Source: a virus
DNA: 35,022 nucleotides
Direction: 5' to 3' (one strand)
Virus genome (UHGV): UHGV-0182056
Below the pieces are notes generated by a model. It was not told the DNA's origin and made no database searches. It saw only the letters and a program-made list of their open reading frames with translations. A program made the position numbers and the translations under genes. Below, one piece after another: positions 7,510 to 33,703 of this stretch (its first letter is position 1; each line of letters opens with the position of its first letter).

Positions 7510-8076
7510 TCAGGGGGATTCATTACTCTTATTTGCCGGAAATTTTCTATAAATTGTGGAAACACCCACATCAAAAATCAGTGCAATACGCTGTCTTGAT
7601 TCTCCGGCCTCGAGTAAGCGTCCAATCTGTGCCCACTGTTCGGTAGTCAACTTAGGACGGCGTCCACCTACTCTGCCTTTGGCGCGAGCTGCAGCAAGCC
7701 CCGCCCTGGTACGTTCAACTATCAGTTCGCGTTCCATTTCAGCCAGGGCACCCATGACATGAAAAAAGAAACGGCCCATTGGGGTACTGGTATCAATACT
7801 GTCAGTCAGGCTTCGGAAATTCACACCTCGCTGGCGCAACTCTTCTATCAACGTAACAAGATGCCGCATACTGCGCCCCAACCTGTCCAGCTTCCAGACA
7901 ACCAGCGTGTCTCCTGCCGATAGTGTCCTGAGCAGCTTTTTCAGCCCCGGTCTGTCGGACTTGGTGCCACTGATTTTATCCTCAAAAATCCGCTCACATC
8001 CCGCACAGTTCAGTGCATTGCGTTGCAAATCGGTGTTCTGGTCATTTGTTGACACGCGTACATAGCCAATAAGCAT
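7510..8076 (-). CDS. pin: Serine-recombinase DNA invertase of the Pin/Gin/Cin/Hin family
   Basis: MLIGYVRVSTNDQNTDLQRNAL...LVVWKLDRLGRSM...FFHVMGALAEMEREL closely resembles e14 Pin / Mu Gin as I recall them; gene abuts the left crossover site. Confidence 0.85.
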   Translation of the reverse strand: MLIGYVRVSTNDQNTDLQRNALNCAGCERIFEDKISGTKSDRPGLKKLLRTLSAGDTLVVWKLDRLGRSMRHLVTLIEELRQRGVNFRSLTDSIDTSTPMGRFFFHVMGALAEMERELIVERTRAGLAAARAKGRVGGRRPKLTTEQWAQIGRLLEAGESRQRIALIFDVGVSTIYRKFPANKSNESP

Positions 8077-8131
8077 GATCATCCCCCTGAATAAAAACCG
8101 GAGATGATGCCAGTTAGCCGTTATCTCTGCA

Positions 8132-8157
8132 TTTTCATAAACGTTGGTTTGGGAGAA
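8132..8157. other. Left recombination site (gix/pix-like) of the invertible tail-fibre segment
   Basis: TTTTCATAAACGTTGGTTTGGGAGAA; its outer 15 bp are a perfect inverted repeat of 10037-10051 and the whole resembles the 26-bp gix site as I recall it. Confidence 0.65.
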
Positions 8158-8496
8158 GCGGCCAAATTGCCTGCGATTAGTGGCTCTTTATCATCATCTG
8201 GCTGGATAAAAATCCCTGTTATAGAGGGGAAGTCTTTTATTATCCAATGGGGAAGAATCGGACCTTCTGATAGTAAAACTGGTGTTGCAACAGGAAGTTA
8301 TCCTATTGCTTTTCCAAATTCTGCATTTATGGCATTTATTGCTGAAAAAACCGCAGTATCCACAGGCCCAATAGGTATTAATTCCTGGGGAGTGTCCGAA
8401 CTAACAAAAACAGAATTAAAGGCCATTTGTGCTGCAAGGACTATATCAACTTCAGCCGCAACTGAAACAGGTGATTTTCTGGTACTGGGATATTGA
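8144..8496 (+). CDS. Silent alternative tail-fibre C-terminal cassette (no own start; would be fused to the constant fibre region after inversion)
   Basis: Open frame runs through the left crossover site and encodes ...VGLGEAAKLPAISGS..., sharing the GLGE junction with the active fibre; AT-rich. Confidence 0.6.
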
Positions 8497-8966
8497 GCTT
8501 CCATAAGGATTATAAAATGTCGAGCATAATATACTACAGCTCTATAAATAATGCATTTTACCCTGAGCATTTGAAACAAGAATATATTAAATCTAATTCT
8601 TTTCCAGCAGATGCAAAACCCGTTAAATATTCTGTTTTCGAAGAATTTGCACTTAAACCAGCACCAGAAGGAAAATATAGATGCGTTGGTGAAGATGGAA
8701 TGCCATCATGGGCAGATATTCCACCACCAACACATGAGGAACAGATTGCCGCAGCCGAATTGAAAAAGCAGCAATTGATTAACCTGGTCAACGAATACAT
8801 GAACAGTAAACAATGGCCCGGTAAAGCGGCTATTGGTCGTCTGAAAGGTGAGGAACTGGCGCAATATAATTTGTGGCTGGATTATCTGGACGCACTGGAA
8901 CTGGTTGATACCTCCAGTGCTCCAGATATTGAATGGCCTACGCCTCCAGCAGTTCAGGCCAGATGA
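8493..8966 (+). CDS. Alternative tail-fibre assembly chaperone (Tfa')
   Basis: C-terminus LWLDYLDALELVDTSSAPDIEWP parallels the C-terminus of the active Tfa (LDYIDAVTATDTSTAPDVIWP). Confidence 0.7.
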   Translation: MSFHKDYKMSSIIYYSSINNAFYPEHLKQEYIKSNSFPADAKPVKYSVFEEFALKPAPEGKYRCVGEDGMPSWADIPPPTHEEQIAAAELKKQQLINLVNEYMNSKQWPGKAAIGRLKGEELAQYNLWLDYLDALELVDTSSAPDIEWPTPPAVQAR

Positions 8967-9540
8967 CATCCGGCGCGGTGCTGGTATCTGTTGCCGTCAC
9001 CGCGTCAATGTAATCCAGCACGGCGTTAAGTCGGGTGTTTTCTGTCTGCGTCAGCTTCCGCACGGCCTGTAATTTCAGTTGAATCAGACTGATAGAAGCC
9101 ATTGCAGCATCAATCAGCGACTGGCGCTGTGCTTCTGCCGCTTCTACTGCGGCGCTATGCTGTGCCTCAGTATCGGTCACCCATTTCTCACCATCCCATT
9201 TATCGTATGGCGTTAACGGTGCGAGAGTGGTTGTTTTTTCGGGATAGTCGCCTGGTGCTGTGATTTCTTTGGCATCTCCCGTTTCGGTGTTATAGACAAT
9301 TTCACCGCGATGGTCTGGCACATATTCCCATGAGTTAAAATCTGCTGAGCGGCAGATAGCATAACCAGCTTTATGTGTAACTGGCGCATCTAAACAAGAA
9401 CATGCCGGGATACCGACGCCAACAGCAAGATATTCAGTTGATGTGGAAATATATTCCCGCGTTTCACCATCATAATTATAAACGGTAATATCTCCCGCCT
9501 TTGTGGCGATGAGTTCCTTATTTAATATAGCTTTATCCAT
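8938..9540 (-). CDS. G: Tail-fibre assembly chaperone (gpG-like), currently expressed orientation
   Basis: 200 aa; N-terminal ...ITVYNYDGETREY... typical of this family; start overlaps the fibre stop. Confidence 0.8.
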   Translation of the reverse strand: MDKAILNKELIATKAGDITVYNYDGETREYISTSTEYLAVGVGIPACSCLDAPVTHKAGYAICRSADFNSWEYVPDHRGEIVYNTETGDAKEITAPGDYPEKTTTLAPLTPYDKWDGEKWVTDTEAQHSAAVEAAEAQRQSLIDAAMASISLIQLKLQAVRKLTQTENTRLNAVLDYIDAVTATDTSTAPDVIWPELLEA

Positions 9541-11099
9541 CAGGCAGCCCTCACGATATAATTAAAGGCAATGTTACGGGGTCGATTTTCGTTTGCAGTT
9601 GGAACAATTCTTGAAGCATCAAGGCCAATCACTTTTGGGTAAACAGCGCCGTCTGCTCTTTCTGTCACCATACTTCTGGTTAAGGAGAAATAACTATTGT
9701 TTGTAGAGGGACTCAATGGCACTATGGCCCCCTTAAACGAGCCTGCTGTTTCCCATATTGAATAATTTTCAGTGTTTACAGTTCTGAACTCACCATAGAT
9801 ATTACGTATGGCATCGCCCTGAGCTGATAATATTGCCCTCCCCGTATCCATACCACGTCCGTCATCCCAGCCACGAATAAACTCACCACGTAAATCAGGC
9901 AATTTTTTTGTCGGGTAAGCCTTTGCCAGTTCCGGGTATTCTTCAGCAGAAAATGCCGCACCGTTGCATTTCAGCCAGCCTGTTGGCGGAGTGGCGGAAG
10001 GCCACGGAACAGGCACACCAACGGGTAATGCCGAACCTTCTCCCAAACCAAGGTATGCGAGAAGACCAGCTACATCCTTTCCACTCAAATTAGTCAGCGT
10101 ATTGTCCAGCGGTTGTTTACCTGCCAGTGCATTAAGCATTGTCGTGGCAAAGTTCGGGTCATTCCCCAGCGCCGCCGCCAGTTCGTTCAGTGTATCCAGT
10201 GCCGCAGGTGCAGAACCCACCATTGCCGCTATCGCCGATTTCACAAAAGCCGTAGTGGCAATCTGTGTATTGTTGACCGACTGCGCCGCCGTGGGGGCTG
10301 TTGGCGTTCCGGTGAGTTCCGGACTCAACAGCGGCACTTTCAGTGCCAGCGCATTATTAATGGTGGTACTGAATTTCGGATCATTGTTAATGGCTACGGC
10401 TATTTCTTTCAGCGTGTCCAGCGTGGCTGGCGCACCATTAATCAGGGCTGTCAGTGCCGCCTGAACAAACGCGGTGGTCGCAAGTTGCGTGGTATTATTC
10501 CCCGCCGCTGGCGTCGGCGCTTTGGGGGTTCCGGTAAATATCGGGCTGGCTTTTGGCGCATACTGTGAATGTGGGTCCGCTGCGGCAAGGTGTTTTGCCA
10601 TCAGGTCATCCACATACACCTTCAGCTCCAGTGCCTTATCATCCACATACTTGCGAGTTGCCAGTACTACAGCAGGGTCGATTTTCAGGGTGATATTGTC
10701 CGTACTGCTGGTAATCAGCACCATGCGCACGGTCTGGGTGCGCCCGCTGCCTTCAGCCAGTTGCGGCTTATAGCTTTCCGGGCAGTTGCCCACGGCAATC
10801 AATGCCCCGGACTCATCAAACAGGCCCACTTCACGTATCCACCAACCGCCCTCGTTTTCAGGGATCACCTGTTCAGCAATAATCTGGCTGCTGTTCTGCG
10901 GGTCGATATAGAGCATATTCAGCGCAGCCCGGCGTTTCTCATTTACCAGTGCAGTCTGCTTTGCGTCCGGCGTTGGCAATACTCCGCCACCATCGCCCAC
11001 CGCCATATGGGTAATTTTTAGCGGCACACCGAGCGCGGCGGAACTGGCAAGTTTCGCCGCGCCAATATCCGTCAGCAGGGTATAAAATTTTGTGCTCAT
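9540..11099 (-). CDS. H: Tail fibre protein gpH (constant N-terminal part plus invertible C-terminal part)
   Basis: N-terminus MSTKFYTLLTDIGAAKLA...MAVGDGGG resembles P2 gpH; the C-terminal ~170 aa lie inside the invertible segment. Confidence 0.85.
   Translation of the reverse strand: MSTKFYTLLTDIGAAKLASSAALGVPLKITHMAVGDGGGVLPTPDAKQTALVNEKRRAALNMLYIDPQNSSQIIAEQVIPENEGGWWIREVGLFDESGALIAVGNCPESYKPQLAEGSGRTQTVRMVLITSSTDNITLKIDPAVVLATRKYVDDKALELKVYVDDLMAKHLAAADPHSQYAPKASPIFTGTPKAPTPAAGNNTTQLATTAFVQAALTALINGAPATLDTLKEIAVAINNDPKFSTTINNALALKVPLLSPELTGTPTAPTAAQSVNNTQIATTAFVKSAIAAMVGSAPAALDTLNELAAALGNDPNFATTMLNALAGKQPLDNTLTNLSGKDVAGLLAYLGLGEGSALPVGVPVPWPSATPPTGWLKCNGAAFSAEEYPELAKAYPTKKLPDLRGEFIRGWDDGRGMDTGRAILSAQGDAIRNIYGEFRTVNTENYSIWETAGSFKGAIVPLSPSTNNSYFSLTRSMVTERADGAVYPKVIGLDASRIVPTANENRPRNIAFNYIVRAA
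10038..10063. other. Right recombination site (gix/pix-like), inside the tail-fibre gene at the constant/variable junction
   Basis: TTCTCCCAAACCAAGGTATGCGAGAA, inverted relative to 8132-8157; encodes the shared ...LGLGE... junction. Confidence 0.65.
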
Positions 11100-11701
11100 G
11101 GATTCACTCTCATTGTGTCAATAACATGGACCGCCCCGCCTTCATGCGCGGTGCCGCCGGAAATAATTGTTTCGTTGATATACGGATAGATCGTGATTTC
11201 TTCGCCAAGATAGCTGGCGGCTCCCACCCAATGCGGGCCGCTGGTCTGCAGGTTGATGGACATGCCGATCATGTGACGGCTACATGGTTTGGCATCGCTT
11301 ATCAGTCGCTCAAGTTCCAGATAGGTATCTTCAGTGATGCCCTGGTCCTGCACGCCGATATCCAGGCGAAACGTGCCCGGTGTTTCTCCGGTCTGCCACC
11401 ACTCAATAATGCGGATCAGAAAGCCGAACGGCTCCACCACCCGCCGCACGGCACTGGTGGTCCCTTTATGCTGATGAATATAAAAAGCATCCTTCACCAC
11501 CTGGCGCTTGACGCTTTCTGTCCAGCCCTCGTCCCAGCGATCCACAGAGAACGCCCAGGCGAGGTAAGGCAGGAAACTGACCGGACAGGTTGCCGGATTC
11601 CACAAGTCACGCAGCGGCACTTGCAGATCAGAAATCCCGCTGCAGGTTTGCGCCAGTCGGCGCTCCAGTGGTGTTGAACCCGGAGGCAGCAGACTATTCA
11701 T
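11096..11701 (-). CDS. I: Baseplate protein gpI
   Basis: 201 aa, P2 position between J and H. Confidence 0.8.
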   Translation of the reverse strand: MNSLLPPGSTPLERRLAQTCSGISDLQVPLRDLWNPATCPVSFLPYLAWAFSVDRWDEGWTESVKRQVVKDAFYIHQHKGTTSAVRRVVEPFGFLIRIIEWWQTGETPGTFRLDIGVQDQGITEDTYLELERLISDAKPCSRHMIGMSINLQTSGPHWVGAASYLGEEITIYPYINETIISGGTAHEGGAVHVIDTMRVNP

Positions 11702-22350: not shown

Positions 22351-23049
22351 TTATTTGTTTCTTCTTTGTTCACGCCTTGTCTTGGCTTCGATAAGGCGTT
22401 GAGGTTCAGTGTAAAGCCGTTCTAAAAAAAGATAGGTAAAATCTTCAAGATCCTCAGCAGCAGCTTTATCCAAAATACCTTCATGCGCTCCATCATTTCC
22501 GTCATCTTTAACGCATTCAGCTAGTTCCCTTAAAGCTTCAGGCAGTAGATGATTATCAAATAACCACTCCATTCTTAACCCTAGGCTTCTCCTTATTTTT
22601 TGCGCAGGCCCTTGCTCCCCATCAGGAAGAAGTCCTTTTGTGGCATAATCAAGGCAAAGCCTAAACATGGTTGCTGCTGCATTATAACAACCTATAGCCA
22701 AACATTTCGCCCCTTCCTCATATGCACTATTGATATGCTCAGGTAAGAACTCTGGTGGCTCCTCTACTGCTAAGTCTGCCGGTGATATAGGCCTAACAAC
22801 CTCTGCAACTTCCTTTAAGCCGAATATTCCACTTTCCCAATTATAGCCATCTAAAGTTTTATTTTTCGTTAAAGGTCTGCAAAGAAACATTGTCGTTTTA
22901 TGACACTCTCGGCAAACACAATAGACCTCGTACTCGTATGTTTTACCCCCGCCCAATGCATTGTAAACCCTAGTGCAATTCAGCCCATTCACATCAAACG
23001 CTATTTTTTGTGATCCACATCGTGGACAGTCATCCACTAACATAACCAT
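22351..23049 (-). CDS. Accessory protein: N-terminal Cys4 zinc ribbon plus alpha-helical C-terminal domain; possible HEPN/DUF4145-like fold; function unknown
   Basis: 232 aa, inserted between Q and cos where P2 has no gene; CPRCG...CRECH; C-terminal GNDGAH resembles the GN-AAH core I recall for DUF4145, but no Arg at the Rx4-6H position; strong RBS GGAGGAG; AT-rich. Confidence 0.45.
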   Translation of the reverse strand: MVMLVDDCPRCGSQKIAFDVNGLNCTRVYNALGGGKTYEYEVYCVCRECHKTTMFLCRPLTKNKTLDGYNWESGIFGLKEVAEVVRPISPADLAVEEPPEFLPEHINSAYEEGAKCLAIGCYNAAATMFRLCLDYATKGLLPDGEQGPAQKIRRSLGLRMEWLFDNHLLPEALRELAECVKDDGNDGAHEGILDKAAAEDLEDFTYLFLERLYTEPQRLIEAKTRREQRRNK

Positions 23050-23160
23050 GTCAATTACTCCTCCCTATGAAAAAAATGAGTTGAAAAATTGAATATTCAC
23101 GACTTAAAAAGCTAGCCTATTTAACACCATAATTTCATTAATTCAACCATGAGCGCGCGC

Positions 23161-23180
23161 TCGTATCCCCGCCACGCCTG
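23161..23180. other. cos-like cohesive-end / packaging site
   Basis: Reverse complement reads GGCGTGGCGGGGATACGAGC, whose first 13 nt match the P2/186 cohesive-end sequence as I recall it; located next to Q as in P2. Confidence 0.5.
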
Positions 23181-23220
23181 CCCGCTTTATGTAGTGGTTT
23201 TCATGCGCCTGCATGACATA

Positions 23221-23247
23221 AGCAAAAGCCCGCCACTCCTGGCGGGC
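23221..23247 (-). terminator. Rho-independent terminator after the 203-aa cargo gene
   Basis: Hairpin GCCCGCCA-loop-TGGCGGGC followed on the minus strand by CTTTTGCTT. Confidence 0.5.
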
Positions 23248-23338
23248 CTCAGCTAAAACGATCCTCAAACGATCATGCGGATTCATGCAGCATAGACATG
23301 CACAATCTCCAAAGCGGGCATCGAGACTTTTTGGAAAC

Positions 23339-23950
23339 CTACGTAACCACAGTTAATGTGTGCATCCTGTCTCGAATTGCATCACACGTCTCATCAAAAA
23401 GCTTGGTGATGGTTGTACGGTTCAACTCCGCCTCTTTCCAATAATTTTGCCCGTCAAATTCTGGATCGCTATGCTGAAACGATATTGACTCTGAAAGGCA
23501 TTCCTTCCGGAAACGGTCCAAGATTATATAAACCTCTGGTGAGATGAACGGTTTGTTAGATTCAACACTTGTGACAAAAGTGTTAAATGCATCAAAAAAA
23601 ACTTTCAACCTTCTAAATTTTCTCTCTTCAAATGGTTCGTTGGGGTCAACATGATCCAGCGCAGGCCTCAGCTTAAGCACGCTTTCTCTGGTTTCAAACA
23701 TCGAATTCCAAATGAGACTATATGCTGATAACTCCTTATCAAAATACGCTTTCGTTACATAAACAGAATTGTCTAACTTAGCCTTTATTCTTTCATTAGT
23801 TGCACTCAGTTGTGATTGAAATTCAGCAATATCTTTGTTTAGCCGCGACTTATATCTTTCTAAATAAACTTTCCCGATCCAAACAAATATGCCAGATGCA
23901 ACAAAAGACACCCCACCCAACGAAGCCAGAACTTTAAAGACTAAATCCAT
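23339..23950 (-). CDS. Accessory membrane-anchored protein of unknown function (N-terminal transmembrane helix, coiled-coil, cytoplasmic domain)
   Basis: 203 aa; hydrophobic segment LASLGGVSFVASGIFVWIG near the N-terminus; AT-rich; lies where P2 carries old/tin. Confidence 0.5.
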   Translation of the reverse strand: MDLVFKVLASLGGVSFVASGIFVWIGKVYLERYKSRLNKDIAEFQSQLSATNERIKAKLDNSVYVTKAYFDKELSAYSLIWNSMFETRESVLKLRPALDHVDPNEPFEERKFRRLKVFFDAFNTFVTSVESNKPFISPEVYIILDRFRKECLSESISFQHSDPEFDGQNYWKEAELNRTTITKLFDETCDAIRDRMHTLTVVT

Positions 23951-23998
23951 TGCGCCCCCACCTACAAAAATAGTATTCCATTATAAGCTAATACATTT

Positions 23999-24259
23999 TT
24001 AATCAAACAGGGGATAATTCGCGTCAACCTCATCACTTCTCTGCTCTACCCTAGTGACTTCCATCAAAAACCCCAGGCCGTCATATAGCGAAACGGGGAA
24101 TTCCAGCTCAAGCCAGAAGCAGTCTTCATAGATGCGGCCCAACCAAAAACCTCCGCCACACTCCTTTGGGCGTTGAAAGAAGACCCAGTCGCCAAGGGTA
24201 AACCGTTCCAGCACCTGGCCCCGATAAATAATCTGGTGATTACTGTCTTTTTTACCCAT
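23999..24259 (-). CDS. Accessory small protein of unknown function
   Basis: Track ORF 23999..24310 begins at a TTG; likely ATG start at MGKKDSNHQ; no family recognised. Confidence 0.4.
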   Translation of the reverse strand: MGKKDSNHQIIYRGQVLERFTLGDWVFFQRPKECGGGFWLGRIYEDCFWLELEFPVSLYDGLGFLMEVTRVEQRSDEVDANYPLFD

Positions 24260-24332: not shown

Positions 24333-24566
24333 TTAGTGCAGCCAGCTGTCGTCTTCCCAAACCTGTTGCATAATTTCCATCACCCGCTTTTTGTCTTCAT
24401 CAAGCTTTAAGCCACTCAGCTCAACGCCGTTTGCCGACCCTTTACGGATGCGGATAGCGGTCTTGGGATAGATGGGTTGCAGGTTGCGGTAAAGCTCGGA
24501 CTCCAGAGCGTCCAGGGTAGACTGGCTAATCTTCTGCTCTTTATCGATCATTATTTCAATGCGCAT
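24333..24566 (-). CDS. DinI-like protein
   Basis: Likely start at MRIEIMIDKEQKIS... preceded by GAGG; 77 aa with acidic C-terminus (VWEDDSWL) resembling E. coli DinI as I recall it. Confidence 0.7.
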   Translation of the reverse strand: MRIEIMIDKEQKISQSTLDALESELYRNLQPIYPKTAIRIRKGSANGVELSGLKLDEDKKRVMEIMQQVWEDDSWLH

Positions 24567-24576
24567 AAAAGTCACC

Positions 24577-24765
24577 TCAGCTGATGACATCCATTGAGCG
24601 GTTGTATTCGTGGCTTCTGATTTTTGCCATGAGTTCATCAGTCAATTCAGAAACCCACTGCAGGGCCAGCCCCTTCTCTTCATCACTACACTCACTAGCC
24701 GCTACAAGCTTAAGAAAAAAATCAATGCGCTGGAGCTTCAAAGACTCCAAAAAATAGTCCTGCAT
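24577..24765 (-). CDS. Small protein (62 aa), first gene of the LexA-box-controlled operon; candidate Tum-like antirepressor (speculative)
   Basis: Start MQDYFLESLK preceded by AGGAGG; LexA box 45-60 bp upstream; 10-bp gap to the DinI-like gene. Confidence 0.45.
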   Translation of the reverse strand: MQDYFLESLKLQRIDFFLKLVAASECSDEEKGLALQWVSELTDELMAKIRSHEYNRSMDVIS

Positions 24766-24807
24766 CTTTCCTCCTATGACACCGCAAACAATACTGTATA
24801 GATAACC

Positions 24808-24826
24808 ACTGTTTATATTTACAGTA
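24808..24826. promoter_or_regulatory. LexA (SOS) box
   Basis: ACTGTTTATATTTACAGTA fits CTGT-N8-ACAG with an AT-rich spacer; sits just upstream of the small-ORF/DinI-like operon. Confidence 0.7.
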
Positions 24827-24918
24827 TATAATAATCTTACTGATGTAAAACGTTTTTTTACGTTCATCAGCCTGATATGCCAGGTATTATTAAGAGCACG
24901 AATTGTTAACCCGCGTAA

Positions 24919-27333
24919 TTAATACAGGTTCCGCCACTTATCATCTTCCTGCAAACGCTGGTTCCGATAGAAGACACGCAGGCCTGCTCCTGACGGAATA
25001 CTGCCGCCGCGAAGGAGTAAATCGACCTCTTTCTCGCTGCCATCAAATCCTCTGGACTTCAGTTCATAGACGAGCTGCTGGCGTTGATGGTCTGTAATTC
25101 GCTGTTTGTAGTCTCTACGCCGTTTCGGTTTCACCAGGCGTAACCTTGCAGCCAGTTCCCGGCGCTCTTTTTTGTTCATACTGTGCAGGTAATCGTGCAA
25201 TCCCTTGTCATCCATGCGGGTAATGTCCGTTCTGGTGTCCCCATCAGCTGATTTATCTTTCCCCTGTTTGTTCAAATTTTCAGCAAGGGGACAGTTATTG
25301 CCACGAGTCCAAGGGGCGCAAGCGCCCTGGTCGGCTGCCACCTCCTGAACGTCAACGGCCTTACGAACCATTTTCCACTTCACTGCATGAGTGCAGATCT
25401 TGCCCTCTGCAATGGGTGACCAGATGCCATAAATACGAATACCGTGATCGCCATAGGCGGTTGGCTCTTCGTTGATTTCATAAGCGGTTCTGATGAGTTG
25501 ATATTTGCGGGGAACCAGTACGCCGCCCTGATTCATGATGTAGGTGGCAAAACAACCAGCATCAGCAGCAGCCAGGATGGCATCAAGGCGCGGGTTATCC
25601 AGTACCGGCGCACCTGCTTTTTTGTCACCCTGTTGCCTTGCCGCCTGACCAGCCAGCAATCGCAGTTCACGGTAAGCCTGACGCCCCGGAATGCCAAAGA
25701 AGCGGAATTGCTGAACACGATGCAGAGACGCCCAGGCATTAACGTATTCAGCGTTATCACGCAGGGATTTACCCGTTTCCTTACTGATCTCGCCAGCCAG
25801 ACCACGCCCGTCAATATTCTTACTGATATATTTCGCAATGTAGCTTGTCGGCGTTCCTTTGCGCGGGTTTATCAGCTCAGACTTAAAGCGTGGCCCCGTG
25901 TTATTGCCCAGCTCCTCGCGGTCTTCACGGATGGCAAACTTACGCAACAATGCAGTAATGGCGCGGCGGTCTTTTTTGCGCATGAAACACAACAGGTGCC
26001 AGTGAACTGTGCCGTCATGATGCGGCTCAGCCACCCGCACGCCATACCAGCGCAACCCGGCTTTGTGCATAGCCTTACGAAATGCAGCAAACATGCCGAC
26101 CAGATAATCGCTGCTTTGTCTTACTGTCGCGTTGGTCCAGGTCGGGTTTGGCCTGCCGTTATTTAGCGTGGAATGGAAACGTGACGGACAGGTGATGGTG
26201 TAGAAAACGGCGCAGTCACCACGCATTTCCGCGATAAGCTCCAGGCCTTTAACACAGGCCATCATCTCGTTGCGGCGATGCGCCGGGTTGCTGCTGCTGG
26301 CGTTTACCACATCCTCCATGTTCAGCGTGTCGCCGTCTTCGTTCACCAGTTCATGAGAACGGAAAAACTCCAGCGACTTACGGCGCTGCTCACGTTTATG
26401 CATCACGGCTTCATAGCTGACATAGGGAGATGCTTTTTTGCTGACCAGGCAGACAGCACGCAACTGCTCTTCCCGCCATTCGCAACGCATCTTCCATAAT
26501 TTCCGATACCACCAGTCGGCGCAAAGCATACGCGCCAGCGAACCCGGAATGAGTTCATAAGGCACAGGTTTGCGGCGGTTTCTTTTCCGGCGGAGTTGCT
26601 CAAACGCAGGCGGTATGACATCCAGTCGCAGGGTTTCTGCAGCCACCTTTTCCCATGTCTTGCGGATTTCTTCTGGCTTAACATCATCGGAGGCGTACAA
26701 ATCACCACAAGCGGCATCAAGACACATGCTCATATGCGCAGCGACAAGGGTGGACAGGCGTTTCACCTGATCCTGACTCATTTCAGGCAGGATCAGCAGG
26801 CCGTCCAGCCCTTCATGGCTTGCCATAAAGCGAAAAGAAGTGGATAGCTGACTGTCGCGTACATGCTCCAGTCGTTCCAGACATGGCTTAATCGTCTCAC
26901 GCAAATAGCGGGAATAAGCCTTTGGTCTGCCCAGGCTGCTGAAGTATTCAATACGTTGCATCAGCGGCTTGCTGATATGGGAAGGCTGAGCGTTAACGTC
27001 CGCCAGAATGACCATGTCTGGATTAAAACGCTGCTGCTCATGCGCCAGCTTTGCCCGGCTAATGAGCTTATCCTGCTCCATTTCGCGCTGGACAGGATCA
27101 CGGGATTCATTAAAGAAATAACGCTCCCAGACCTGATCACTCAGTGCCTCGCGGCGCAGTTGTTCCTGCTCGTTATCGGCAGCGTACAGAGTGATCAGGT
27201 TTGAAAGCGCAGAAACCGGCGCAACTTCCGCCGGGTCCAGATAAGGGTTAATGGCCTTTTTCGGGATGTTCCATGAGAATGCTGCGGCGACCTCGTTAAA
27301 GCCGCTGCAGTTGTTCATATCAGCATGGCTCAT
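24919..27333 (-). CDS. A: Replication initiation protein gpA (rolling-circle nickase)
   Basis: 804 aa; size and position fit P2/186 A. Confidence 0.85.
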
Positions 27334-29053: not shown

Positions 29054-29247
29054 TTGTTCCCCCGTTTTTTCGTTGATAGTTCTGCCAGCAATTCATCTTG
29101 TGAACGGCACGGATGCCAGCGTTTACCATCCTTACCCATTATCCAGCCGTGACCGTAGTGCATTGCCGGACTTTGTTTTACCAGCAGCGATGCAAATGAT
29201 GGTTCTTTCGTCAGCATAAGCACCTCACAGCAAACCGAATGAAGCAC
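29017..29247 (-). CDS. Early-region small protein directly downstream of cII (position of 186 fil)
   Basis: 76-aa track ORF; start uncertain. Confidence 0.35.
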   Translation of the reverse strand: MLHSVCCEVLMLTKEPSFASLLVKQSPAMHYGHGWIMGKDGKRWHPCRSQDELLAELSTKKRGNKWLLKALRRLFH

Positions 29248-29734
29248 CGAGGCCAGTCACGGTATCAACTGCACTCGCCATCGCAGGGTTAGCCTGTAAA
29301 CGGGCCTGCAATGACACAGCAGCCAGCGCCATCAGTCGTGTTACAGAGTTAATGCTGCTGATAGCATCACGACGACCTGCACTGGTTTTTACATCGCCAG
29401 ATACCGCACCTGCAGCAACACGCCCGATCTCTGCGGTTGCGCTCATGACGTAATGTGGCAGTTTCTCTTTTGCCACCTCATTAATCGGTACACATGGCAG
29501 ACAATGAATCTGTGCCAGAAAACCATCTACCAGCGTTGAATCTTCAGTCAGATCGGTAAGCAGCCAGATTTCTGACGGCGTGAGCTGATGTGATTGTTCC
29601 GGGTTAAGCTTGTTACGCAGCGTCTGGACGTTCATTCCCGCGCGTTCTGCCAGCTTTGCCATGTTGTGACGCAGTGCGAAAGCCCGGCAGGCTTCATCAA
29701 AATGCGGATGTTTGGAAACACGATAATCAAACAT
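29225..29734 (-). CDS. cII: CII-like lysogeny-establishment activator (phage 186 type)
   Basis: 169 aa; MFDYRVSKHPHFDEACRAFALRHNMAKLAERAGMNVQTLRNKLNPEQ... resembles 186 CII as I recall it. Confidence 0.8.
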   Translation of the reverse strand: MFDYRVSKHPHFDEACRAFALRHNMAKLAERAGMNVQTLRNKLNPEQSHQLTPSEIWLLTDLTEDSTLVDGFLAQIHCLPCVPINEVAKEKLPHYVMSATAEIGRVAAGAVSGDVKTSAGRRDAISSINSVTRLMALAAVSLQARLQANPAMASAVDTVTGLGASFGLL

Positions 29735-29768: not shown

Positions 29769-30005
29769 TCAGGCTTGCATTGCGACTTCGCAGCCTTGGG
29801 CCGCTTCCATCGTCAACGCGAACATGTTGATTTCGATAAGGCTGTTAACTCCGGCTTTTTTCCTGATGGGAAGGCGGTTTTCCCGGATCATTTGGCGGGC
29901 ATAGCTAGGCTTGTAACCAGTACGACGACAGAACTCATCCAGTGTGATGAATGGCTCAGATATCACAAGGTTGATGCTGGGGCGCATTGAAAAATTACTT
30001 TTCAT
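29769..30005 (-). CDS. apl: Apl/Cox-like excisionase and lytic-switch regulator
   Basis: 78 aa, first gene of the lytic operon, divergent from cI. Confidence 0.7.
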   Translation of the reverse strand: MKSNFSMRPSINLVISEPFITLDEFCRRTGYKPSYARQMIRENRLPIRKKAGVNSLIEINMFALTMEAAQGCEVAMQA

Positions 30006-30745: not shown

Positions 30746-31294
30746 ATGAGAGTTTTAGTCACAGGCGTATTAATTTTGTCATCATTTGCTGCAATTGCAG
30801 CACCTGAACAATTCAAAAACATTAATGACTTGATGGAAAACTATAACGATTATCCAACTTATACCGTAGACGGTAAGGATTTTCCATCTTTCAAAATTTT
30901 ATCTGAAAAGCCTTTACACATCCAAATCTCGCCGCGCACTTTATCAGGGAGTTCAACGAAAGATATTAAGTACGAATCAGACAGGGCAGCCATTTACGCA
31001 GCATATCGTACTTTGTATCAAACGCCTGCAGACAGGGTTAAAGTCACAGTATTACCTATTTCAATTACCCCCCAGCCTCGGAAGGTAGAGTATATGACGG
31101 AATATAAATATGATTTTAGCATTACAAAAAAGCAGGCAATAAATTTACTCCGCAGACACAGCAATATATTGAATGAAGACCAGTTAATGTCCGCCAATGG
31201 TGAATGGAGCAAAGCATTTGAAAAGTGCTGTTACCTTGAAGAAGGTAAGCCCGGTTTATCAATATTTGCTAAAGAGTTAATCACGCAAAGGTAA
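30746..31294 (+). CDS. Moron: secreted/periplasmic protein of unknown function, apparently in the lysogenic cI-int operon
   Basis: 182 aa with N-terminal signal peptide MRVLVTGVLILSSFAAIAAP; AT-rich; stop 5 bp before the int start. Confidence 0.55.
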   Translation: MRVLVTGVLILSSFAAIAAPEQFKNINDLMENYNDYPTYTVDGKDFPSFKILSEKPLHIQISPRTLSGSSTKDIKYESDRAAIYAAYRTLYQTPADRVKVTVLPISITPQPRKVEYMTEYKYDFSITKKQAINLLRRHSNILNEDQLMSANGEWSKAFEKCCYLEEGKPGLSIFAKELITQR

Positions 31295-32350: not shown

Positions 32351-33703
32351 TCAATCAAAAAAATCCTTTTTGAAATCGCTACTACTAGATAATCCAGGTC
32401 TTATTTTTTCAATAACATCTTGACAAGCCGCAGGTTGATCATCAAGTGCCTTGGACGCTTTTTCCTTTATTTTTGGTATATTATTAAACCTACCTTTCAT
32501 CATTCCATCCGGCCCATACGCACCCCAAATACCTGCAGCGCAGATATTCACTATCAATTCAAAACATTCAAGATCATTCATTAATAAAGCAATATCTTTA
32601 TCATAAACGCTAGCACTTCTAGCGAATGAGTTCGCCTCATCAAATGTTGAAGATCCTGCTTTTGAAAAAATATTACTAATTAATTTAGCTCTAGCCCATT
32701 CTTTATGCTTCACAACATTCATCAATACAGGGCTGAATTTATACTTATTCAACACATCATCAATATTATTCATAAAAAACTTATCTAATACAGCCTTGTC
32801 CAATGCCAGAAGACTTCTTACTATTTGAACAGGATGTCTCAAATATGTATGTTGATCTGCTGTACTTGTAGACGAAATTGTACTTTCAAACATTTTATTA
32901 ATTCTTAAATAAAATATATCATCTAAATCCTTTATCAAATTTGAATTTGTTGAAATTGACTCCATTAAAAACTTAGTTTTATTTTCATCTGAACTGCACT
33001 CCTCTAAAACCTGTTTTTTTATTTGTTGAAGAACTTGATCATTCAAAGGATTACTCGACAGTCCAAGAAGATATCTCTTAGCATTAACTTGTATCTGTTC
33101 GTTCGGATTATCAAGAGATTGGAGTAGTTTTTTTAATAGATAGGAGTAACCATCATGATGAAGATTCTTTACACCTTCATTTACTACTGTAGCATGATCT
33201 TGTATGTTTGTTGTAGGAAATAAATATGCATTTGTTAATTTTGATATAATTTCATCTGCAACTTGTGTTGTAGAAAGAATTGGTTTTGAAAGGAATCTGC
33301 CAATTGTTTCTGAAAAGACATATCTTGCTTCTTCGGCTGTTGGTTTGTGACCGGAAGGATGCGCTGCTTTGTTTCTAAGAGTTTTCAATACGGTTAGAAA
33401 ATCAGCATCTATATCAGTAATTATTTTTTCAGATTTTAAGCGATTCAGCAAATCATTCTCAAAAACCTTTTGCTCTTCCCTTTTTTTATTTATCTCTGCA
33501 AATATGGCCCTTGCAACTTTATTTGTCGATGCCATTCCATTTAGTTTTTTTAATAAATCTTCAAATATAGCGATAAAAGATAAAACAACACATGCGCGAT
33601 GAGCACCTGTCATATAGCAAGTTAGTGCTTCGCGCATATACTCCTTAAGCTCTACATCAACAATATCACTTATAAGTTCTTCCATGTCCCTCAAACTTGA
33701 CAT
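32351..33703 (-). CDS. Accessory protein: N-terminal HEPN-like (DUF4145-like) domain with an Rx4H motif plus a large C-terminal helical domain; candidate single-gene abortive-infection/defence protein
   Basis: 450 aa, strongly AT-rich, between int and attR; ...LTVLKTLRNKAAHPSGH... gives R-x4-H; RBS GAGGGG upstream. Confidence 0.5.
   Translation of the reverse strand: MSSLRDMEELISDIVDVELKEYMREALTCYMTGAHRACVVLSFIAIFEDLLKKLNGMASTNKVARAIFAEINKKREEQKVFENDLLNRLKSEKIITDIDADFLTVLKTLRNKAAHPSGHKPTAEEARYVFSETIGRFLSKPILSTTQVADEIISKLTNAYLFPTTNIQDHATVVNEGVKNLHHDGYSYLLKKLLQSLDNPNEQIQVNAKRYLLGLSSNPLNDQVLQQIKKQVLEECSSDENKTKFLMESISTNSNLIKDLDDIFYLRINKMFESTISSTSTADQHTYLRHPVQIVRSLLALDKAVLDKFFMNNIDDVLNKYKFSPVLMNVVKHKEWARAKLISNIFSKAGSSTFDEANSFARSASVYDKDIALLMNDLECFELIVNICAAGIWGAYGPDGMMKGRFNNIPKIKEKASKALDDQPAACQDVIEKIRPGLSSSSDFKKDFFD

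Follow-up and report, generated by a model that had tools for sequence, protein, structure and literature searches.

A split tumA-tumB operon behind a double LexA box as the probable SOS-induction module of a 186/Fels-2-type prophage

Here, we analyzed an operon of two small genes in the virus genome UHGV-0182056, a stretch of 35,022 nucleotides (nt) that we refer to as the window and that represents a 186/Fels-2-type prophage belonging to the P2 family (Peduoviridae). On the minus strand, the stop codon of the replication gene gpA is followed, in this order, by a putative −35 hexamer, a putative −10 hexamer that coincides with the start of a first LexA box, a second LexA box, the Shine-Dalgarno sequence AGGAGG and the open reading frames (ORFs) of tumA (ORF1, 62 amino acids) and tumB (ORF2, 77 amino acids) (Table 1). 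This is the position that the promoter p95 and the gene tum occupy in phage 186, directly after the replicase gene A. An earlier, sequence-only reading of the window had described the first box as a near-consensus LexA site upstream of a 62-residue ORF with a strong ribosome-binding site, followed 10 nt later by a 77-residue DinI-like ORF, and its coordinates, spacings and sizes were all correct; the second LexA box had been missed. Based on the architecture of this locus, the homology of its products and published genetics of an identical protein, we conclude, with a probability that we put at roughly 85%, that the operon is the SOS-induction module of the prophage, present in its split form, tumA-tumB.

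The first LexA box lies 42 to 61 nt upstream of the tumA start codon and agrees with the consensus, TACTGTATATATATACAGTA, at 17 of 20 positions; the plus-strand string quoted in the earlier reading, ACTGTTTATATTTACAGTA, corresponds to positions 24808 to 24826. It is the sole CTGT-N8-ACAG motif within the window. Such a core is by itself not rare (0.48 expected, with at least one occurrence in 37 of 100 shuffled sequences); a 20-mer matching the consensus equally well was found in none of 100 shuffles. Box 2 follows with its core overlapping that of box 1 by one base. The hexamers TTTACA and TACTGT, separated by 17 nt, would constitute a p95-like SOS promoter: p95 of phage 186 is annotated as TTCACA-N18-TACTGT, the annotated −10 TACTGT there opening the LexA site, and the arrangement TTTACA-N17-TACTGT is retained in SopEPhi and MLG42 despite a differing 17-nt spacer sequence. 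With a near-consensus CTGT-N8-ACAG lying over this probable −10 element, the region has the properties of a predicted LexA (SOS) operator. A longer reading of ORF1, of 96 amino acids from an upstream ATG at 24867, was rejected; because that start codon precedes the proposed promoter and the LexA boxes would fall inside the extension, the 62-residue frame preceded by AGGAGG is taken as the real one. In databases, TumA is often called with a wrong, longer start, yielding 84 to 109 amino acids (database entries P0001-P0120; MK422454.1), and these upstream extensions vary in sequence as well as in length. At the junction between the two genes, there is a weak hairpin (GTCATC-AGCTGA-GGTGAC, followed by TTTT) whose loop contains the stop codon of tumA and whose 3' arm contains the Shine-Dalgarno sequence of tumB; we speculate that it may serve translational coupling or partial termination between tumA and tumB.

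Table 1. Coordinates of the operon, its control elements, its neighbors and the features compared in other loci (positions refer to the window unless preceded by a locus handle beginning with L, in which case they are locus coordinates)
Feature	Position	Strand	Remarks
tumA (ORF1), 62 amino acids	24577-24765 (including stop)	minus	ATG at 24765, AGGAGG upstream
tumB (ORF2), 77 amino acids	24333-24566	minus	DinI family; start 10 nt past ORF1
LexA box 1, TACTGTAAATATAAACAGTG	24807-24826	minus	17/20 to consensus
LexA box 2, CAGTGGTTATCTATACAGTA	24792-24811	minus	15/20 to consensus
Putative −35 hexamer TTTACA, p95-like SOS promoter	24844-24849	minus	analogy with 186 p95, and conservation
Putative −10 hexamer TACTGT	24821-24826	minus	first six bases of LexA box 1; inferred, as in 186 p95
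Shine-Dalgarno AGGAGG of tumA	24770-24775	minus	4 nt from ATG
Weak hairpin at the tumA/tumB junction	24571-24588	minus	terminator-like; 6 pairs, 3 of them G-C
gpA replication endonuclease, 804 amino acids	24919-27333	minus	upstream neighbor of the operon; stop codon at 24919; PF05840 seen in identical-context loci
cI, 186-type immunity repressor, 204 amino acids	30107-30721	plus	PF07022, E 2e-28; PF16452, E 2e-21
apl/cox-like excisionase-repressor, lytic arm	29769-30005	minus	phrog_575, E 8e-23
cII-like activator, lytic arm	29225-29734	minus	PF06892, E 3e-44
TumA-like ORF without DinI gene, ESSI-2	L006:1201-1425		
TumA-like ORF without DinI gene, ESSI2_ev015	L007:1201-1413		
Double-domain CI	L024:1745-2689	minus	identical TumA in prophage
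Double-domain CI	L026:1225-2103	minus	identical TumA in prophage
Double-domain CI	L030:1505-2383	minus	identical TumA in prophage

A LexA box directly upstream of a TumA-like gene was found in all ten phages and prophages that we compared (186, PSP3, Fels-2, Cartapus, SopEPhi, MLG42, YenM_06.16-2, ESSI-2, ESSI2_ev015 and Escherichia coli HS), and it is also present in ten further contigs that encode the identical TumA. Since the flanks of the boxes have diverged among the ten phages and prophages, this recurrence argues against a chance occurrence. The compared promoters, checked by eye in their printed sequences, fall into two forms: 186, PSP3, YenM_06.16-2, ESSI-2 and ESSI2_ev015 carry a single box, whereas Fels-2, SopEPhi, MLG42, Cartapus, E. 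coli HS and the window carry two boxes whose cores share one base. Across 15 Fels-2-type promoters, the ACAGT arm and the CAGTG(G/A)TTAT arm of box 2 are invariant and its center bases are variable. When the HS/Fels-2 form of the operator was used as a typed query of 41 nt (rather than the window's own sequence), it matched approximately 1200 plasmids; on a 9.3-kb ColRNAI plasmid, the match amounts to 92% over 39 nt and the operator, TACTGTATATAAAACCAGTGGTTATATGTACAGTA, precedes a colicin-like bacteriocin gene. This direct plasmid search was used in place of a text search of papers for the colicin operator sequence, which gave no matches. Like the tum operator, which TACTGTATATAAAACCAGTGGTTATATGTACAGTA nearly equals, the operators of colicins and bacteriocins consist of two LexA boxes with cores sharing one base, but they serve a bacteriocin operon on ColE1-type plasmids instead of a phage antirepressor, and the colicin promoter has its −10 element upstream of the boxes. 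By their layout, boxes 1 and 2 can thus be classed as a colicin-type double SOS operator. Colicin double operators bind two LexA dimers, which represses very tightly and blocks basal expression of the lethal product (PMC2994835). By the same token, the double operator of the window would accommodate two LexA dimers, and the double box would be expected to confer very low basal tum expression and a high SOS threshold, properties that suit a gene whose expression kills the lysogen.

The best family match of ORF1 is phrog_698 (expect value [E] 6e-38), whose function is listed as unknown, and no match was obtained in Pfam, NCBIfam or PADLOC. An exhaustive HMMER search of 1.8 billion representative proteins with ORF1 returned 67 of them, nearly all stand-alone proteins of 55 to 75 amino acids; the three longer matches inspected (P0241, P0262 and P0284) contain no DinI fusions, and no ORF1-type TumA fused to DinI was found among the inspected members of this set. 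A profile built from these proteins was then set against one that represents the relatives of 186 Tum in its N-terminal half, and hhalign joined the two families with a probability of 96.7% (E 3.2e-10) over 41 ungapped columns, spanning residues 3 to 43 of both families in the same register. The score was 47.4; the reversed profile reached 7.1, and 60 controls with shuffled columns scored 9.2 ± 2.2, with a maximum of 17.4. Identity between TumA and the corresponding part of 186 Tum is about 20%, and a 60-residue "tum protein" of the Yersinia phage YenM_06.16-2 matches both profiles at 97% probability. The common core reads L-x-R-[IV]-x-[LMF]-x3-[LM]-x-A-x3-C-x4-[KR]-x-[LIV]-A-L-x-W-[IVL]-x-E-[LIM], with D3, E7, R13, I14, C26, A34, W37, E40 and L41 nearly invariant. 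This homology to the non-DinI half of 186 Tum, together with a position directly downstream of the replicase gene A and a promoter overlapped by a LexA box, places TumA in the Tum/TumA antirepressor family. AlphaFold2 predicts a helical hairpin for TumA (helices at residues 2 to 23 and 28 to 61; mean predicted local distance difference test score, 87.7). A sequence search of the PDB gave no match, and Foldseek of the model against the PDB returned generic helical hairpins only (E > 2), so that the fold gives no functional lead. Compared with the orthologues in Fels-2, SopEPhi, MLG42, Cartapus and E. coli HS, tumA and tumB show ratios of nonsynonymous to synonymous substitution (dN/dS) of 0.06 to 0.09 at a synonymous divergence (dS) of about 1, a pattern that marks both ORFs as real genes under strong purifying selection.

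TumB matches the Pfam DinI family, PF06183, at 86.1 bits (E 2e-24; cut-off, 24.2), which bears out its earlier description as DinI-like, and scores only 53.7 bits against the NCBIfam equivalog of the host DinI, NF007893, below the cut-off of 111. These scores identify TumB as a phage DinI-like paralogue and not the chromosomal DinI. It aligns to residues 71 to 145 of 186 Tum with 43% identity (E 2e-25), so that 186 Tum can be read as the N-terminal domain fused to a DinI domain. The window protein is identical to PSP3 TumB at 71 of 77 residues and to the E. coli HS counterpart at 66 of 77. The two genes of the window differ in their history: compared with E. coli HS, tumA carries one synonymous change (dS 0.03) whereas tumB has a dS of 1.0, which reveals a recombination joint lying between the two genes (window 24333-24765 against L022:24619-25051), and the tumB allele of the window is of the PSP3/SopEPhi type. 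As for its role, TumB is probably not the inducer and would instead modulate RecA-filament (SOS) activity in induction; in the annotation of 186 (NC_001317), the DinI-only products "modulate SOS induction". In the Cronobacter phage ESSI-2 and the Escherichia phage ESSI2_ev015, a LexA box accompanies a TumA-like ORF (41 to 49% identical; unannotated in ESSI-2), and a DinI gene is lacking. These loci support the notion that TumA can stand alone and may be the sufficient core of the module.

The split arrangement and its function are already known, having been described for PSP3 and Fels-2. In phage 186, Tum (146 amino acids, expressed from p95) is LexA repressed and blocks DNA binding by CI (PMC7708051, citing Shearwin et al. 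1998), in keeping with the annotation "inhibits CI DNA binding" in NC_001317, and 186-type CI is inactivated through binding, that is, sequestration, by Tum and not through RecA-mediated cleavage (PMC7708051). The earlier reading, too, had started from the induction of 186-type phages through a LexA-repressed Tum. As in the window, the LexA-repressed promoter of 186 follows gene A and the N- and C-terminal halves of Tum are homologous to TumA and TumB, respectively, but the halves are fused in one polypeptide, internal starts give the DinI-only products, and there is a single LexA box. Lemire et al. 2011 noted that Tum resembles an antirepressor fused to DinI (PMC3121763), and in Fels-2 and PSP3 a stop codon divides tum into two parts (PMC3121763, with reference to Bunny et al. 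2002), with the antirepressor activity of PSP3 residing in the upstream gene (PMC3121763). PSP3 shares with the window the split operon with a LexA box; its tumA (60 amino acids) is annotated "similar to 5' end 186 tum; UV induction of prophage" and its tumB "similar to dinI and 3' end of 186 tum". It differs in a highly diverged TumA and a single LexA box. Fels-2 STM2728.Fels2 / STM2726.1 and SopEPhi orf10/orf11 are pairs annotated "hypothetical" or "unknown" that have the same double LexA operator and TumA proteins identical to that of the window at 60 and 56 of 62 residues, respectively; RE2010, a relative of Fels-2, has a CI about 39% identical to the window CI. Of the alignments that the sequence-only reading had proposed as a check, the one to Fels-2 showed near identity and the one to 186 Tum showed homology at the level of profiles. 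Its idea that the 62-residue protein may be an antirepressor gained support, but the protein is not a distinct small kind of antirepressor, as that reading had considered: TumA is shorter than 186 Tum because the latter is a TumA-DinI fusion whose halves are separate here. Further parallels are the Gifsy GfoA/GftA and N15 AntC proteins, small antirepressors from LexA-repressed operons containing a dinI homologue, which act on the repressor by binding and not by cleavage and for which cross talk between prophages has been reported (PMC3121763); in these systems, no sequence kinship is shown, dinI comes first, and the repressors belong to another family.

Direct genetic evidence comes from DuoHS, a P2-like prophage of E. 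coli HS, in which an in-frame "delta-tum" was made in the Phollow study (PMC11195241, PMC12055606). By mapping the published primers (PMC11195241) on E. coli HS, we found that the deletion removes exactly ECHS_RS04495, fusing its ATG to TGA; the product of this gene is identical to the window TumA at all 62 residues, and the deletion (primer NHR28) leaves the Shine-Dalgarno sequence and start codon of tumB and the DinI-like gene itself intact. According to the passages of that study dealing with DuoHS, both mitomycin C lysis and viral foci are abolished in delta-tum, as they are in a lexA(Ind-) background, and the host SOS reporter still fires in delta-tum (PMC12055606). The DuoHS locus also shares with the window the promoter, the double LexA box, the ribosome-binding site and the order gpA-tumA-tumB; the two differ in TumB, in CI (42% identical) and in the downstream cargo.

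Taken together, these data suggest the following sequence of events. In an undamaged lysogen, LexA would sit on the double operator, over the −10 region and the start site of a sigma-70 promoter, and the operon would be silent. DNA damage would activate RecA, LexA would cleave itself, and the promoter would fire. TumA, a 62-residue helical hairpin by prediction, would then bind and sequester the 186-type CI, which would no longer hold the lytic promoter; derepression of pR would lead to expression of Apl, CII and the replication genes and to lytic growth, with TumB, the second product, modulating RecA-filament and SOS activity during induction. We base the hold by LexA, its release by cleavage and the derepression of pR on the LexA dependence and tum requirement reported for DuoHS and on the 186 literature, the sequestration of CI on the homology of TumA to Tum, whose antirepressor mechanism is likewise taken from the literature, and the part of TumB on its membership in the DinI family and the 186 annotation of DinI-only products. 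The anatomy of the module, the conservation of the LexA box, the homology to the N-terminal half of Tum and the identity with DuoHS Tum are the contribution of the present analysis. By analogy with the published result for the identical DuoHS protein, tumA would be needed for SOS induction of the window prophage, which is very probably SOS inducible; the target of TumA is presumed to be the window CI, to which it would bind directly.

Several points weigh against this picture. Its experimental support comes from other phages and not from an experiment on the window prophage, and what the passages on DuoHS offer is a deletion phenotype only. The promoter hexamers are only inferred, and a generic sigma-70 scan, which required at least four of six matches per hexamer, called no promoter here. 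BLASTP produced no alignment between ORF1 and 186 Tum, and the homology is one of profiles built from short helical sequences; moreover, PSP3 TumA matches the ORF1 family weakly (hhalign probability 24%, compared with 84% against the N-terminal family of 186 Tum). Finally, the window CI shares 42% identity with DuoHS CI and 39 to 50% with the CIs of the phage collection, so that its recognition by TumA is only assumed.

One alternative would be a different role for ORF1, which might act, for instance, as a toxin, division inhibitor or defense factor that is induced by SOS and has nothing to do with the repressor, its expression being timed by the LexA box. The lack of a curated family in Pfam, NCBIfam and PADLOC, the "unknown function" label in PHROG and the generic fold, a helical hairpin that has no significant structural match, would all fit such a role, yet ORF1 has a homologue in the N-terminal half of 186 Tum and, in the DuoHS passages, deletion of the identical gene specifically blocks prophage induction in a host whose SOS reporter remains responsive (PMC12055606); we give this explanation hardly any credence. 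Nor do we think it at all probable that TumB, on its own or jointly with TumA, acts as the true inducer, for instance by stabilizing RecA filaments that inactivate CI, with TumA as an accessory. RecA filaments are indeed a target of DinI proteins (literature cited in PMC3121763), 186 Tum has its DinI half in the same polypeptide, and the passages on the DuoHS deletion leave room for effects on tumB translation; against this, that deletion is in frame and spares the translation signals of tumB, ESSI-2-type phages have TumA and the LexA box without a DinI gene, the antirepressor activity of PSP3 was reported in the upstream gene (PMC3121763), the annotation of 186 describes its truncated DinI-only products solely as modulators of SOS induction, and CI of the 186 type is inactivated by Tum binding rather than RecA-mediated cleavage (PMC7708051).

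A more serious concern is the pairing of TumA with its repressor. The window CI carries the Phage_CI_repr and Phage_CI_C domains and is thus of the 186 type, not the P2 C type or a LexA-like cleavable repressor, but no CI in the phage collection is more than 50% identical to it, with 39% identity to the CIs of Cartapus and RE2010 and 42% to that of DuoHS, where TumA is 97 to 100% identical. One could therefore argue that the tumA-tumB operon is genuine and yet mismatched, the immunity region having been swapped by recombination so that the resident CI goes unrecognized and the prophage is not SOS inducible, or is so only via a co-resident phage. The 39 to 50% identity to the CIs of phages with a TumA 85 to 100% identical, the contrast between a 42% identical CI and a 62/62 TumA in DuoHS, and the mosaic makeup of the region, visible in the unequal dS of tumA and tumB, speak for this scenario. 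However, identical TumA proteins stand beside at least eight CI types and the gene is still under strong purifying selection, the N-terminal domains of the CIs keep a conserved patch that could be a common docking surface, and one would expect decay of a mismatch that recurs across this many lineages, which makes the mismatch unlikely in our view.

Returning to an SOS-induction module that acts on its own repressor, the pairing of an invariant TumA with so many repressors suggests another view of specificity. The ten contigs with the exact 62-residue TumA comprise at least eight CI types of 35 to 62% pairwise identity, and in three of these contigs CI has 292 to 314 amino acids, with two tandem Phage_CI_repr helix-turn-helix domains and a single C-terminal domain. 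In the phages sharing this TumA, the N-terminal domain of CI is 61 to 69% identical, compared with 28 to 47% for the C-terminal domain, and contains the strongly conserved patch S-x-S-T-x-A-x-R-x2-R-D-x-F-P-x2-W-x-I-x-C-x2-E-T-G; the N-terminal domain of 186 CI is 36% identical. A wider test of whether identity of TumA covaries with that of the CI domains gave no clear answer (Spearman rho, +0.41 for the N-terminal and −0.41 for the C-terminal domain, with a p of about 0.065 and pairs that are not independent), and ESSI2_ev015 is a counterexample. From the many CI types and the conserved patch, we tentatively propose, at somewhat less than an even chance, that the Fels-2-type TumA is a generalist antirepressor that docks on the conserved N-terminal patch of CI. 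If this were true, swaps of the immunity region would never break SOS inducibility, and one SOS event would coinduce all co-resident heteroimmune P2-like prophages; the colicin-type double LexA operator would then make TumA a late SOS function with a high threshold.

Of 5426 complete E. coli genomes, 1126 carry the module, and the index of the assembly collection has the exact TumA protein in more than 38,000 blocks. In each of the E. coli records listed, the RefSeq name of ORF1 is "hypothetical protein"; at times, TumA bears misleading names such as "levan regulatory protein" or "levan regulatory domain protein". The practical value of this work lies in this annotation gap, as Pfam, NCBIfam and PADLOC have no model for the family and PHROG lists no function: the name TumA/Tum antirepressor could be transferred, given a published deletion phenotype for the identical protein. 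The module itself represents the known trigger that couples DNA damage to induction in 186/Fels-2-type prophages, and the questions that it raises are modest, namely how one invariant TumA deals with many CIs and what a colicin-style double operator does to the timing of induction.

Around the operon, the sequence shares 97.6% identity with Escherichia phage Cartapus and about 91% with many P2-like phages of Klebsiella, Escherichia and Salmonella. The interval between tumB and the portal gene is a variable cargo hotspot (window 22351-24259, minus strand; approximately 8500 to 11500 in loci L023-L032). In the window, it holds an 86-residue ORF (phrog_2100), a 203-residue ORF (phrog_26391) and a 232-residue DUF4145 protein with a weak match to the defense system PD-T7-4 (E 1e-6); at the same place, relatives carry genes for a reverse transcriptase, AIPR, TIR, PIN_12 or an acetyltransferase. 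No terminator was found after tumB, and the first cargo gene may therefore be cotranscribed from the SOS promoter. The interval between cI and int may be a second cargo site: it contains a family-less ORF of 182 amino acids in the window (30746-31294, plus strand) and a SNIPE/T5orf172 nuclease in two relatives (L023 and L028). Just beyond int lies a 450-residue DUF4145 protein (32351-33703, minus strand). Elsewhere in the window, a serine recombinase/invertase gene (Resolvase and HTH_7 domains; 7510-8082, minus strand) adjoins a tail-fiber C-terminal cassette of opposite orientation (Gp53-like_C; 8104-8496, plus strand) and a tail-fiber assembly gene (8938-9540); the segment from 7510 to 9540 is probably an invertible host-range switch.

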